Counted from the stretch's first letter, positions 25 through 39,730 are shown. The stretch: 45,146 bases of DNA from Candidatus Heimdallarchaeota archaeon (GCA_019058275.1 JAHLVW010000093.1:1-45146); one strand, 5' to 3'. The notes: generated from the sequence alone by a model not told the origin. Numbers and translations: made by a program.

Positions 25-1668
25 TTACTCCAAATCTTTGTCCCAAGTTTTTTTCATATATAATAGTTCATCTTTTTTCATTTGCGAGTTGGTAAGGTTA
101 TAATTATAAAAAGTTGTTAGGAAATTAGCGATGAGTCGACCGTCTAATCTTTGTTTCTTTAGTAATACATTAAATTGGTTATGAAACATATTGATAACTT
201 TTTTTTGATCTAAACAAACATTCAAGTAATTTTTTCTTGGGTCTAGCAATGGTAAAAGTTGATCTAGTTCCTTTGAAGGTTTTAATGGTAATTTAATTGC
301 TTTGGAAGTTGAATATTTGAAATAGATTTTTGAATAATTATTCTCTAATTGCTCCATTAAGCTTGTCGAATGTTTATACTTCATTGTTATTATTTTGTTT
401 AGAAATTTAATTGGTATTGCTCGTTCTTGTTTTTCGAATTTTGAATAAACACCTCGAGATAATTTTAACAAATCACTCATTTCAGAATACGTTCTTTCAC
501 CTCTAAACTCTTTAAGCAATTCTTCAATACCAACAACTAGAAGTCCATCGAGTAATAAGAAATTAAAATAACCATGTGTTGTTATTGTTTCCTTTCTTAA
601 ACCCATAAACTGATTGGAAAATCGCTTTCTTTGTAATAACTGATAAAAATCACTACGTTTTTTAGGATTGGAAACACCAATTAACTTTGCAACATCTTGA
701 GTATGCTCAGCAGGAATGATTAACTGATAAGCGTGGATAGTTGTTTCTACAAGTTTAGAATCGATTAGGTTTGGGATTAGATAATTTTGAAAATCCTTCA
801 CAAATTGTTTACTAGCACTGGTAAAAACTATTTGGTTCTTGTATGTTCCATCTGCGTCCATTGCTCCACGCCAATAAAGAGCTCTAAAAGATTTGTCAAA
901 TAATTGTAGATATAATCGCTCCCGTAAAGAATCATACTTTGCTCCTTGAATGGTGTGATCTGTTAAGAAATTAAATAACCGAACTGCTGCAGAGGATCGT
1001 AGTTCAACATTCCAAGCATTGCCTGTTTTGAAAATAATACCCGGATCACAAAATACTTTCTGAAATAAATTGGTTATAAGTTGGATTTGTTCCTTCGTTT
1101 CATCGACTATTCTAAGCCAGTGCTTGTGCAGGTGTCCGTCACCATTTATTGCACCACACAAGTAAGCTATTTGTTTTGTAATTTTCGTTGATACACAATA
1201 TTTCTTTCCTTTAGGGCTTTCGAATTCAATTTTAGCATCGTTCACTAATTCGTTTTGTTTTATAATCTCCCAGGCACATCTAACAAGTGGGTAGGGCATC
1301 GCTCCTCGCTCAAGATAGTGCTTTATGCCTATTCGCCAGTCCAAGATACCATTATTAATGGATTTGTAAAAATAATCCCGAGCAATTTCTGCAATAAGCA
1401 AATCTTTCTCATTGATCAAATTCCTTTCTTCTTCTGTAAGAACTTTGAAAGGAAAACGAGATAATATTCGATCACTTTTATTCTCTCGAACAAAATCAAT
1501 TTTCTTAACTAATATCGGATAAAGATCAAGTATTTGTTCATCCTCATTCAAGAAGATTTTTTCTTGCTCACTTGAAGAAATTAATCTATTTGCGGTCATC
1601 CATTCATTTGCTGGTAAACAATCTGAATCAAATAATAAAGGATCGTTTCTCCAGTTAAGAACAGTCAA
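25..1668 (-). CDS. Free-standing double-motif LAGLIDADG endonuclease-like protein with C-terminal XRE-type HTH
   Basis: Motifs AYLCGAINGDGHL and ALYWRGAMDADGTY; HTH-like LLKEFRGERTYSEMSDLLKLSRGVYSKFEKQERAIP; no intein terminal motifs; GAGGAG SD before the TTG start; paralog at 36513-38150. Confidence 0.8.
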   Translation of the reverse strand: MTVLNWRNDPLLFDSDCLPANEWMTANRLISSSEQEKIFLNEDEQILDLYPILVKKIDFVRENKSDRILSRFPFKVLTEEERNLINEKDLLIAEIARDYFYKSINNGILDWRIGIKHYLERGAMPYPLVRCAWEIIKQNELVNDAKIEFESPKGKKYCVSTKITKQIAYLCGAINGDGHLHKHWLRIVDETKEQIQLITNLFQKVFCDPGIIFKTGNAWNVELRSSAAVRLFNFLTDHTIQGAKYDSLRERLYLQLFDKSFRALYWRGAMDADGTYKNQIVFTSASKQFVKDFQNYLIPNLIDSKLVETTIHAYQLIIPAEHTQDVAKLIGVSNPKKRSDFYQLLQRKRFSNQFMGLRKETITTHGYFNFLLLDGLLVVGIEELLKEFRGERTYSEMSDLLKLSRGVYSKFEKQERAIPIKFLNKIITMKYKHSTSLMEQLENNYSKIYFKYSTSKAIKLPLKPSKELDQLLPLLDPRKNYLNVCLDQKKVINMFHNQFNVLLKKQRLDGRLIANFLTTFYNYNLTNSQMKKDELLYMKKTWDKDLE

Positions 1669-1742
1669 CTATTACTCCTCAAAGCTTTGTGTGTACATTC
1701 AATATTAACTCAACGAAAAATATCTATAAAATGCTAAATACA

Positions 1743-1928
1743 TTATTTCTTTACAATTATTGTTTTGTAATCTTTAACATAAATTTCCATAATATCTCCT
1801 TGTTTAATATCTAGTGCTTCAACTATTTCTTTTGGCAATGTTATATGTAAACTATCACCAATTTTTCCCACTTTTCTTTTAAAAGGAATTATTACATGTT
1901 CTTCATCTTTTGTCAATTCAAACCACAT
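1743..1928 (-). CDS. AbrB/MazE/SpoVT-family DNA-binding protein
   Basis: RKVGKIGDSLHITLPKEIVEALDIKQGD matches the swapped-hairpin consensus. Confidence 0.9.
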   Translation of the reverse strand: MWFELTKDEEHVIIPFKRKVGKIGDSLHITLPKEIVEALDIKQGDIMEIYVKDYKTIIVKK

Positions 1929-36512: not shown

Positions 36513-38150
36513 CTATCTTAATGATGGAAATATCAATCTAACTCTAATAAAACAGAATTCTGTCACAAAGGAAAAAAGAACTGAATTGTATAATGTACGT
36601 TTTGACGAAATTGGAATAGCTAAATACTCTCTTAGTGTTCTACGAAATTTTTCTAGTGATTGATTTGGTAATCCAATAATGAGAAAATAACCCTTTCTTA
36701 CTTGTAATCCTTTTAATAAATTAAGTAAGTCACTAGTTGGATGAGTGTCTATGAGACATGAAGTTTTGTGTGAATGAAAAGAGAGCTTAGGATAATCTTG
36801 GTAGAATTGAGCTGAAGAATGATTTGTGAGGTTAAAAAGTTGGTGTAGAGTTAGAATTGGAATCGGAGAGGAATTGCGTTCATAGTGTGAAAAAATACTT
36901 TGACTAATGTTTAATTTTATTGCAATTTCTTCTTGAGTAAAAGGTAAACGAAGGTTCTGAATATATTCTCCAAGACCTGAGACGCTTAATTGTGGAAGTC
37001 GAAAAAAGTCGAAATAACCATTATTAGAAAGCTGCTCTTTGTAGCCGAAAACTTGATGCTTCCTTTGTCCTTGCTCTTTTCGAGCTATCGATCGAGGTTG
37101 TATGACTTTTTGTTGGAAAAGTTTCTTACGTTCTTGTTGTTTTTGAGTTTGATTAGAACTTATCAAATGCATGAATTTCTTACGTTCCGTGGGAAGAATA
37201 CGTATTTGAAAACCAATTCCATAGTTAGTTTCATTTCGAGAAAAATTGCATTTGATATTTTCATTAGCTAAAAAAATTCTGAAATCTTTTGTCAATCGTT
37301 CAGATGCTGATACAAAACTTATCCCTGTTTTATAACTTCCATCTGCATCCATCAACCCACACCAGAAAGCTTTTTGGTAAAGGTCAGTTTCTCTAAAAAT
37401 AAGTGGTTCTCTCAGGGAAGGATATTTTCGTATTGCAATTGGTTGTCCAGAAAGAAAATTAAAGAAACGAACAAGCCATTTACCCAAAATATTAACATTC
37501 CAGGCTTGAGCATTTTGCTGTTTGAAAAATTCAGTTCGTGAGCAAAATGTTTCTTTTAATAACTTGACTAAATTCTCAATATGCTCTTTAGAGTTGTCTA
37601 TGATATTAATAAAATAGTCAACAAGATGTCCATCACCCATAATAACACCCGTAAGATAAGCTAAATCTTCTGTAAGGTATAGTGGTAGCTGGAAATTTTC
37701 ACCTCAGGCGGACTGGAATGGTATGAATTGTTTTCCTTGAAAGAAATCTTCCCAGGAGCTAAACAACCGGAAAAGAGGAAAGGGGAGTCGTTGTTGTTCT
37801 TCTAAATAGGAAATGATTCTCTTTTGCCAGTTATGAATGGACTTTGAAATATTTGAATCGGTAAAATAACAGAAGATTTTCTCAGCTAAGACAAGTGAAT
37901 TCTTTCTAATTTTATTAATCCATACTCTGTCTAATTTTATGTAAGGAAATGATTGCAAAATTCGTTCTCCAGAAACAAAATCCACTTTACGAATCATAAT
38001 TGGATAAAGCTGAATTTGTCCTGTTGATGTTAGAAACCTCTCACTTTGACTAGTTTCTAGTAACTCATTTGCAGTTAACCAATTGTTTTGTTTCATTGGT
38101 GTAGGATCAAAAAGTAGTGGGGCAGTTTGCCAGTTCAAGAATTCAGTCAT
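36513..38150 (-). pseudogene. LAGLIDADG + XRE-HTH protein (paralog of 25-1668) interrupted by an in-frame TGA at 37704-37706
   Basis: MTEFLNWQTAPLLFD vs MTVLNWRNDPLLFD; FQSA*GENF...AYLTGVIMGDGHL; AFWCGLMDADGSY; FTQEEIAIKLNISQSIFSHYER; 545 codons if read through. Confidence 0.85.
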
Positions 38151-38321
38151 CTAGCTTCTCCTGAAATACTATTGCTGCTTTCCTTTCTTAAACACCTCTT
38201 TGTACTGTTGTACGAATTATTAATTATTTAACTATTCTTTTAAAGAAACGATTATTACTCTCGGTAAACTCCTTATAAAAATACTATATATCTAGCTGTA
38301 TATATATTTTATTGAAGAAAA

Positions 38322-39730
38322 ATGTCCTCTCATACAAACAAGAACAACCTCCAAAAATCCTACAAGTTCAAAGTGGTACTTCCCGAAAACAAACAAAATA
38401 ATTTGTATTATTTCAAACAATTGATACAAGAAGCTTCTCATGAATTACTTGAGAAAGTCTGGACAGAAGATTGGGTTGATAAATTAGGAATTAACAATAA
38501 AAAAGCTTACAAGGTCATCAATGAAGCACAAGTACAACTCGAACGAGAAGGACAATTAGTCTATCTCCCCTCAAGAATCAGAAGGGGAATAGCTGAACGA
38601 GTAGGAAGAATCCTTCAAGGGCAATACAAACGAATGAACTGCTATTTTGACTGTTTGAAAACTATCGAACAAATTGGTATAGATGCTCATGAAGCCAAAC
38701 TGGTGAAAATTGTGCAACAAACGTTTCGCACGAAGAATAACTACCCCACTTACAAAAAAATCATGGCGCAGCAAACCATCCGCATGCTGAAGAACTGGTA
38801 TGAAAAACTAGCAATAGATTTTGAGATGTTCAAATATACTGATTTCGTAAATCAAGAAGTGAAGCGATTCGCTTTTCCCTATGGACCAGATGATGGGCAA
38901 GCAATACAATATGTTTGTGGTGAGCAAAGTATTTGTCATAGAATGAAATTGCCAGTCATCCCACAACCAAAGAGTAAACAAGACTGGCAATGGGTTGAGA
39001 GCGAGGTAGTCATCCCAGCAAAAATTCAGAAAAAAATACAACAAGCATTATCTGAGCAACCAAAAAAACCAATGTTACTTATAAAAACCTTAAAGGGAGG
39101 ATTAAGGCACTTCTTCTTGCAATTTCCCTGGGAGTTTCCGAAACAACCCAAAAAAGAAGAACAGACTGAAAGAGCACTCGCAGTAGACCTCGGGCTAAAG
39201 AAAATTGCTACAGCAGTAGTGTGTGAGACTGGAGAACAGCTTAGTAAGCCTATCTATATCAAACTTAAGGGAAGACAGTATAGGCACATAGAAGAAATTT
39301 ACTTGCATATCGCAAGCATCCAAACACAGTTATCAAAACTAAAAGACAGGAAACGATTAGAAAACACCATGATAACTAAAAAAGAAGAACGGAGAAGACT
39401 CTATAGCAAAAGAAATCGTCTAGGAGATGAATTGGTAAACATTTCAGTGAATCAATTAATTCAATTGGCACTTGACTGGAAGTGCTCAAAAATCATAATC
39501 GAGGATTTACGCAACTATAAACCACCGCATGGAAGAAGAAGCTGGTCACGGAGATTAAGCGAATGGCTCAGAGGAAGGATCGCTCACACCCTTGAGTACA
39601 AATGCCAAGAAAAAGGGTTGTGTTTGCAGAAAGTGTGCCCCTTGAACACATCATCACATTGTCCAAGATGCACAAAAGAAGGATTAAAGGTAAAAGGACC
39701 AAATGACCTTGCAGCTGACCCAAAAGGGAC
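38322..39730 (+). mobile_element. tnpB: TnpB-like (IS200/IS605-family) RNA-guided nuclease, C-terminally truncated, no TnpA nearby
   Basis: RuvC-I LAVDLG (D at 39186), RuvC-II IIIEDL (E at 39501), NTSSHCPRC; no second CxxC and no DxNAAxNI RuvC-III motif. Confidence 0.85.

Follow-up and report, generated by a model that had tools for sequence, protein, structure and literature searches.

LAGLIDADG-HTH genes facing exchangeable nuclease modules in a Heimdallarchaeota genome: candidate hubs of a modular mobile cassette family

The stretch of DNA considered here, referred to below as the window, comprises 45,146 nucleotides from a Candidatus Heimdallarchaeota archaeon (GCA_019058275.1 JAHLVW010000093.1:1-45146) and is contig C88 of a genome bin of 4.1 Mb with about 32% G+C (G000). 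The proteins it encodes have their homologues in Asgard archaea of the Heimdall group. It carries two genes of one family, in which a double LAGLIDADG endonuclease core is combined with a helix-turn-helix (HTH) domain, and each of these genes lies head-to-head with a nuclease module: a RAMP gene followed by a putative HD nuclease gene at locus A, and a TnpB gene at locus B. With moderate confidence, we are inclined to regard both loci as copies of a family of modular mobile cassettes, in which the LAGLIDADG-HTH protein would be the hub and, by prediction, an active targeting subunit. What is observed is a recurrent architecture, insertion or deletion between species at both loci, a Cas1 fold in the model of an associated protein, phylogenies of hub and facing nuclease that are decoupled, and invariant catalytic aspartates. 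The copies in the window itself are decaying, truncated or cut by the contig end.

The genome was surveyed by mapping open reading frames (ORFs) around all LAGLIDADG-HTH loci and clustering the neighbouring genes. There are 22 such loci, with a mutual identity of 30-50%, and at 20 of them the 5' side could be assessed. The gene on that side belongs to one of four nuclease families in 18/20 cases, with gaps of 169-626 bp:

TnpB group 1: 6 loci
TnpB group 2, about 20% identical to group 1 and with full TNB and HTH_OrfB domains: 4 loci
RAMP + HD pair: 4 loci, with an AbrB gene in between in three
NERD-domain protein of about 720 aa: 4 loci

Counted from the nuclease side, 6 of the 7 assessable TnpB-1 genes, 4/4 TnpB-2 genes, 4/6 RAMP genes and 4/6 NERD genes have a LAGLIDADG start at a distance of 170-630 bp. 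Pairing of 18 of the 20 loci with one of four nuclease families excludes chance. About a quarter of the copies are pseudogenes. A 5' nuclease module is also present at 18-19 of 26 loci that were fetched from eight other species of the genus, a third TnpB group among them. Outside the genus the LAGLIDADG family is sporadic, and the LAGLIDADG-AbrB / RAMP-HD arrangement recurs in three other lineages (L131, L136, L140). A count of this kind had been proposed in the first-pass annotation of the window, which expected an enrichment of TnpB and RAMP genes next to homologues of the LAGLIDADG protein, and this enrichment is borne out both in this genome and in the other species. The same annotation described the partners as RNA-guided and the arrangement as divergent. 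The former fits TnpB and RAMP but not the NERD protein, a fourth partner that is not known as RNA-guided; the latter holds for both loci in the window, whereas TnpB or NERD is located upstream in a co-directional orientation at five loci of other species.

The DNA between hub and nuclease is itself conserved in many copies. At locus B the junction is as follows:

38151..38321: conserved spacer of about 165 bp, in which TATA-like boxes point in both directions; it also has a palindrome of the GTACAnnTGTAC type and a TACTTTCGG box

This spacer has 71-92% nucleotide identity among 12 loci with TnpB-1, TnpB-2 or NERD as the partner, while the proteins that flank it are only 30-60% identical, and it is also kept in three other species. 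A search of the genome with an nhmmer profile of the spacer gave exactly 12 copies, every one at the 5' end of a LAGLIDADG gene. To judge from the motifs it contains, the spacer looks like a bidirectional promoter or control region. Comparison by eye of a variable box in the spacer with the LAGLIDADG clades gave no obvious match. The RAMP loci and one NERD locus have another junction, with a small AbrB/MazE gene placed upstream of LAGLIDADG. In the AbrB-RAMP spacers of other genomes (L047, L131, L136), perfect TTACGGAATCCGTAA-type palindromes flank a conserved ATATTTATAAG box, and these palindromes look like operator sites for the AbrB/MazE protein.

On its 3' side, the LAGLIDADG gene is accompanied by a recurrent module of one of three types: a 1274-1367-aa protein followed by a DEAD/Helicase_C/MZB helicase; operons of unassigned proteins (f8-f2, f17-f2-f16-f27-helicase, f32); or a convergent gene for a 288-aa PD-(D/E)XK (Cas4-like) protein. 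The C-terminal 431 residues of the 1367-aa protein were modelled with AlphaFold2 (AF2) using 15 homologues (predicted local distance difference test score, pLDDT, 80). The model matches the casposase structure 6opm and Cas1 structures with an E value of 6e-7 and a probability of 1.0, and the residues E, H and D occur in the expected order and are invariant in the homologues. As modelled, the protein is thus predicted to have a Cas1/casposase fold. It is present at the paralogue loci C27, C50, C11 and C17. The fold search linked only this protein to Cas1; searches by sequence (Pfam to E 5; phmmer and hmmsearch with the PDB) gave no Cas1 link for the 1367-aa or the fam2 proteins.

The modules on the two sides of the hub behave differently on a tree of 40 LAGLIDADG proteins. 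The 3'-module and 5'-nuclease labels were each scored by the number of changes and compared with 300 shuffles, with the restriction that the following shuffle counts overstate significance because related sequences share labels by descent:

3'-module label: 4 changes, minimum 4; 0/300 shuffles as low
5'-nuclease label: 12 changes, minimum 4; 150/300 shuffles as low, which is not lower than random

The contrast between both labels on one tree is still informative. Strongly supported small clades mix NERD, TnpB-1 and TnpB-2 partners. Furthermore, at the rpoE site of a sister species (G008) the RAMP and HD genes are 72-74% identical to those of locus A, with a LAGLIDADG gene from another clade (41%). 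The contrast on the tree and the situation at this site indicate that the LAGLIDADG gene belongs with the integrase/Cas4 side, and that the facing nuclease is exchanged. The earlier notion of a LAGLIDADG core paired with interchangeable nucleases holds in its central point, with one correction: the gene follows its 3'-side module (4 versus 12 changes) and not the nuclease that it faces.

Complete elements of the TnpB type occur in two sister species (L160, positions 4703-15872, in G010, and L161). They are 11.2 kb in size and have the gene order helicase <- aCas1 <- LAGLIDADG / TnpB ->, and on both sides they end in an imperfect terminal inverted repeat (TIR) of about 34 bp, in which 18 bp form a perfect core. 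The TIR core has 10 occurrences in G000, as compared to 0 for a reversed control pattern. It is found just past the 3' end of TnpB at C27 and about 1.1 kb past the 3' end of the helicase gene at C101. Thus, while it is correct, as was noted at first, that no transposase can be recognized in the window, complete copies do carry a Cas1-fold integrase and a helicase between TIRs.

Element ends from downstream of TnpB, of about 130 nt and ending in GGAACGGT, are found at three further places (C78:99269-99329, C117:50597-50659 and C45:13212-13283). There is no TnpB match at C117 and C45, and the copy at C78 adjoins only a short 3' TnpB fragment (C78:99300-99569). These copies may be remnants or miniature derivatives.

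The AF2 model of the LAGLIDADG-HTH protein (pLDDT 92) has the alpha-beta-beta-alpha-beta-beta-alpha double-domain fold. In a Foldseek search it matched I-DmoI with a target-normalised TM score (TMt) of 0.74-0.78 and a root-mean-square deviation of 2.4-3.5 A, and also I-Tsp061I and PI-PfuI; WhiA structures were among the matches as well, ranked far below the true endonucleases. Conservation was scored on 44 homologues of 30-52% identity. Invariant residues are G172, G176, D177, G178, W266, G268, D271 and D273, and G274 is conserved in at least 90%. Residues D177 and D273 are the catalytic aspartates, one ending each LAGLIDADG helix, and the invariance of both argues for an active nuclease, not for a scaffold of the WhiA type. 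The gene is free-standing, with no intron or intein context. Along the protein, the mean pairwise identity falls:

N-terminal domain: 44%
LAGLIDADG half 1: 49%
LAGLIDADG half 2: 38%
linker + HTH: 26%
C-terminal domain: 26%

In the two complete elements, the aCas1-helicase DNA is 83.5% identical, yet the DNA that encodes the LAGLIDADG protein is unalignable from about residue 270 onwards. The unalignable stretch (L160 12256-13219) comprises this C-terminal portion of the gene together with the adjoining spacer, and is a local hypervariable or swapped segment. The N-terminal domain (about 160 aa) is confined to this family: it was present in 52 representative clusters among 1.84 billion, where it always forms the N terminus of a protein with about 520-606 aa or belongs to a fragment. 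The HTH domain is of the Xre type, with Pfam HTH_3 matches on distant members.

Of the two loci in the window, locus B is located between an APH kinase gene and the host ogg gene. Its features are:

33944..39803: insert B, about 5.85 kb, absent in six sister species and in an independent metagenome contig
34361..35995, plus strand: unassigned ORF of 544 aa, no Pfam or NCBIfam match
36513..38150, minus strand: LAGLIDADG-HTH copy B, a pseudogene with one in-frame TGA at 37704-37706
38322..39724, plus strand: remnant of TnpB group 1, with Pfam and NCBIfam matches
39724..39803, plus strand: remnant of the conserved region downstream of TnpB, with the TnpB-side TIR (core 39776-39787), from alignment with C5, C52, C78, C117 and C45
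39810..40724, plus strand: host ogg (8-oxoguanine DNA glycosylase; TIGR00588, OGG_N/HhH-GPD)

The APH kinase gene directly precedes ogg in G003, G004, G006, G008, G009 and G010. Relative to G004 (96% nucleotide identity), the window has an insert from 33944 to about 39800 in place of 33 bp of intergenic DNA, and a contig from an unrelated metagenome study (X6) bridges 33943 to 39800. The insert contains the 544-aa ORF, the LAGLIDADG pseudogene and the TnpB remnant, and is bounded on the right by the conserved stretch downstream of TnpB, in which the TnpB-side inverted repeat is contained. No target-site duplication or TIR pair was found at the insert ends, and there is no left TIR partner in the window; the TnpB-side repeat is the only TIR-like match on insert B. 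Cas1 and helicase genes are absent from the insert, and their place is occupied by the 544-aa ORF.

The first-pass annotation correctly saw a LAGLIDADG gene facing TnpB at locus B. Copy B is homologous to copy A (BLASTP E 1e-40 and 1e-24 for two parts), but it is interrupted by a stop, a CGA-to-TGA change by which the conserved SARGE of the family reads SA*GE, and the TnpB gene is 3'-deleted and fused to ogg. According to an alignment with intact paralogues, the TnpB remnant has kept RuvC-I, RuvC-II and the first CxxC, while the second CxxC and RuvC-III (ADRD) are deleted; the Pfam TNB match covers positions 3-36 of 60 only. An internal deletion has removed the last 70 or so codons of TnpB together with part of the downstream conserved region. 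Of this 3' (omega-RNA-like) region only the last 80 nt or so are left, with the deletion lying upstream as compared to C5, C52 and C78. The sequence of copy B is matched by Logan contigs of the source runs, which also confirm the TnpB-ogg junction. Locus B, with its nonsense mutation in LAGLIDADG and its 3'-deleted TnpB, is a dead, one-ended remnant that is decaying.

Due to the deletion in TnpB and the replacement of the ogg promoter region, the remnant reads in frame into ogg, so that positions 38322-40724 form one frame of 800 aa in which residues 1-469 are TnpB and residues 509-800 are OGG. A natural fusion of a dead TnpB with a glycosylase was considered and rejected: it is unique to G000, where the deletion and the disappearance of the 33 intergenic bp brought it about. 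The ogg orthologues of ten sister genomes are all stand-alone frames of 294-323 aa, which makes the fusion an accident of decay and not a conserved architecture. The 33 bp replaced by insert B contain a likely TATA box of ogg in G004, and expression of ogg may now occur only as the fusion, or from a promoter borne by the element.

No LAGLIDADG gene is located in the vicinity of the paralogues that the 544-aa ORF has at C105 and C110. A block of 71 nt at window positions 36415-36485 has a counterpart at C105:77672-77742 with 93% identity and another one on C110 with 77%. Each copy of this block comes after a small hydrophobic ORF, and the distance to the paralogue of the 544-aa ORF in front of it is about 420 nt.

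Locus A occupies the start of the window and is directly followed by the archaeal rpoE'-DUF359-S24e operon:

25..1668, minus strand: LAGLIDADG-HTH copy A, 547 aa, intact (Pfam LAGLIDADG_3, E 4.8e-6), consisting of the family-specific N-terminal domain, an I-DmoI-like double LAGLIDADG core, an Xre-type HTH and a C-terminal domain
1743..1928, minus strand: MazE/AbrB-fold gene, 61 aa (PF04014, E 6e-12), upstream of and co-directional with copy A
1929..2016: AT-rich spacer, divergent promoter of the AbrB type as read directly from the sequence
2017..2796, plus strand: RAMP (Cas7-like) gene (PF03787, E 3.4e-6; 28.1 bits against a curated cutoff of 22.1)
2760..3815, plus strand: putative HD nuclease gene, 351 aa (sub-threshold HD match, E 0.14)
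3765..3900, plus strand: conserved block of about 135 nt, overlapping with the HD gene at the latter's 3' end and forming the right border of insert A shortly ahead of rpoE'

The LAGLIDADG, AbrB and RAMP genes are as described originally. The gene that had been called Cas5-HD gave no Cas5 signal in Pfam and family searches, and its HD match is weak (E 0.14). It invariably follows the RAMP gene, of which G000 has seven paralogues (n=7), and the two together would form an array-less module of the ARAMP type in which the HD assignment is putative. Paralogues of the MazE/AbrB gene are in an equivalent place at C11, C84 and C89. The spacer at 1929..2016 has no match to the model of the conserved 165-bp spacer.

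Locus A sits at the contig end, and its continuation is on contig C30, of which the final 250 or so bases match window positions 1-116 plus 254-389 exactly but have no counterpart of 117-253. Since the end of C30 has the sequence of the window start, C30 and C88 are neighbours, and a 137-bp deletion allele inside LAGLIDADG copy A segregates in the sampled population. In the joined sequence, 5.66 kb (Cas4-like, LAGLIDADG, AbrB, RAMP and HD genes) separates a 410-aa gene from rpoE'. Three sister species have the 410-aa gene and then rpoE' within about 310 bp, and thus an empty site; G008 carries the same block and G010 a decayed block. No Cas1 homologue is present within the 5.66-kb insert A. 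The alignment to empty sites, which had likewise been suggested at the outset, thus shows at both loci that LAGLIDADG and nuclease lie in one block that is absent from sister species.

Copies of the conserved block that borders insert A on the right occur with 72-82% identity (blastn) at C11, C89, C105 and C86. Stand-alone copies of this block, without an adjacent gene, occur at C11:57290-57399 and C11:40926-41060.

In the cassette family to which we assign the loci, the hub gene, of about 545 residues, is inherited together with its 3' module, which may be a Cas1-fold integrase plus helicase, an operon of unassigned proteins or a Cas4-like nuclease, whereas the 5' side holds an exchangeable nuclease: TnpB of at least three groups, array-less RAMP+HD, or NERD. 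The junction consists of either the spacer of about 165 bp that is conserved at the DNA level, or an AbrB/MazE gene flanked by palindromic, operator-like sites. The LAGLIDADG protein would serve as an active, highly sequence-specific subunit for DNA recognition and cleavage, acting in homing or in the selection of a target site or junction. Its conserved N-terminal half would have a function common to all copies, while the DNA specificity of the individual copy would come from the half that evolves fast, with the HTH and the C-terminal domain. The protein may also autoregulate the shared promoter region. A tentative extension of this scheme, for which we would not expect confirmation to be the likelier outcome, is that a LAGLIDADG meganuclease and an exchangeable nuclease make up a plug-and-play targeting pair for Cas1-integrase transposons, in which the LAGLIDADG protein, by reading a composite site with its conserved and its hypervariable half, would set the address of each element and the 165-bp spacer would act as the swap junction.

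Several observations speak against a mobile cassette with an active targeting hub. Convincing TIRs were not found for cassettes of the NERD and f8-f2 types, so that mobility of these is seen only as presence or absence. Insert B lacks an integrase, a helicase and a second TIR, yet it is absent from a relative with 96% identity. Outside the genus, some homologues (L127, L128, L129) have no 5' nuclease, and the inflation of the shuffle counts mentioned above weighs in the same direction. The cassettes are known here from sequence and predicted structure, which places activity, DNA target and transcription at the level of prediction. The main rival, which we consider rather unlikely, holds that the LAGLIDADG-HTH protein is mainly a transcriptional regulator, i.e. 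a WhiA-like or Xre-type repressor that silences the facing, potentially toxic nuclease and its own operon, with nuclease activity being secondary or lost. Comparable cases would be a phage immunity region and the HTH protein that has been proposed as an 'antitoxin' at some TnpB loci. The head-to-head genes, the dense and conserved promoter-like spacer, its TATA-like boxes and its palindrome are what one would find at a regulated promoter, as are the palindromic operator-like sites around the TATA box in AbrB-type loci; the HTH is of the Xre type, for which a divergent layout is the textbook arrangement of a plain regulator; WhiA, with the same LAGLIDADG-plus-HTH architecture, appears among the fold matches; and a toxin-antitoxin role of TnpB-associated DNA-binding proteins has been proposed according to work cited in a review (PMC13565253). 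However, WhiA has lost both aspartates that are invariant in the 44 homologues. Furthermore, co-variation of repressor and operator would predict the reverse of what is seen, namely a conserved spacer together with HTH and C-terminal parts that are the most variable of the protein (26%), and the gene tracks its 3' module and not the nuclease that it is supposed to regulate. The roles of regulator and nuclease subunit are not mutually exclusive.

We find it quite improbable that the loci are defence systems in variable islands, with the LAGLIDADG-HTH protein as a sensor or effector nuclease that acts with its neighbouring module and with mobility being incidental. This would agree with the variation of the loci between sister species and with the fact that RAMP+HD, NERD, the DEAD/MZB helicase and the Cas4-like nuclease belong to families that are common in defence systems; ARAMP is predicted to be one in the part of the literature consulted (PMC8730458). 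It is harder to reconcile with the TIRs, Cas1-fold integrase and end-defined insertions of TnpB-type copies, with the high pseudogene fraction and the segregating deletion allele, or with the lack of a CRISPR array or other adaptive component; array-like repeats are absent throughout the window. Finally, the LAGLIDADG and nuclease genes could have landed together twice by chance or at an insertion hot spot, as the first-pass annotation allowed. With 22 copies in 4.1 Mb, two within 45 kb are indeed unremarkable, but the fixed spacing of the 18 paired loci with their four nuclease families, the presence of all 12 spacer copies in position, and the recurrence across species and lineages leave this explanation with virtually no probability, and the counts within and across genomes refute it.

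The record of Asgard Cas1-TnpB and ARAMP loci consists of computational catalogues only. A LAGLIDADG-HTH protein with intact catalytic residues is the common denominator of both kinds and provides a concrete candidate for a targeting or regulatory subunit, as well as a naturally occurring case in which protein-guided and RNA-guided nucleases undergo modular exchange. It is a small, compact family for which intact copies, such as those at C27 and C50, empty sites and defined ends exist.

The designation as an undescribed family, given to the two loci initially, has to be narrowed: the pairing is recurrent and the partner interchangeable, but elements of this kind have already been catalogued as aCas1-TnpB and ARAMP. 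Asgard aCas1-TnpB loci were catalogued computationally, with the TnpB groups Cas1H-Asgard-1/-2 (Altae-Tran et al. 2023, PMC10691335). According to the main text of that paper, these have TnpB beside a very diverged Cas1, flanking repeats and a conserved region downstream of tnpB, and the complete paralogues found here fit with their Cas1 fold, helicase, TIRs and size of 11.2 kb. A LAGLIDADG gene is not mentioned in that main text, whereas here LAGLIDADG is the constant component and TnpB one of four partners; locus B differs by having no Cas1, no helicase and a single TIR. Locus A fits ARAMP/HRAMP as presented in the text of PMC8730458, with a diverged RAMP, a putative nuclease partner, no array, and an Asgard host. 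Most ARAMP loci are said there to include a distinct Cas1 (PMC8730458), unlike insert A, and the link to LAGLIDADG-HTH via an AbrB gene is not in that text. In as far as the main texts on aCas1-TnpB and ARAMP go, nothing is said of a hub role of LAGLIDADG, of a link with the 3' module, of 5' sides being freely exchanged, of the conserved junction or of the invariant aspartates.

The LAGLIDADG homing endonucleases I-DmoI, I-Tsp061I and PI-PfuI share the monomeric double-motif core and both acidic residues with the hub protein (TM 0.7-0.78, target-normalised). They differ in that the present genes have no intron or intein and occur in integrase-bearing cassettes, and that the proteins have an additional N-terminal domain of about 160 aa, an HTH and a C-terminal domain. 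In WhiA a LAGLIDADG scaffold is likewise followed by an HTH, but the catalytic residues that are invariant here have been lost. A homing-endonuclease homologue in an 8-kb mobile element, HeimM2 of Ca. Heimdallarchaeum, was proposed to be co-opted for site-specific integration (Wu et al. 2022, PMC8813620). In the text seen, HeimM2 is a single element treated in one sentence, without nuclease partner, Cas1 module or an analysis across a family, and it is likened to the present cassettes by description only. A resemblance to IS200/IS605 and IS607 may lie in the conserved 3' region of TnpB, which looks RNA-like and would extend up to the boundary of the element, the flank behind it then being the guide. 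Unlike these elements, the cassettes have no Y1 or serine recombinase, their TIRs are symmetrical instead of subterminal hairpins, and a LAGLIDADG-HTH gene faces tnpB. The analogy to IS605 tnpA/tnpB that had been drawn earlier thus fails; among the three ORFs of insert B there is no match to a Y1 (HUH) or serine recombinase TnpA.

Scans of the window for Rfam families and tRNA genes gave zero matches, and the scores obtained in Protein Atlas look-ups were all <0.9. In the RpoE' (Rpb7-like) gene behind locus A, positions 4450-4680 of the window encode a Lys/Thr/Ala-rich tail that is derived from imperfect tandem repeats with a period of 66 nt.

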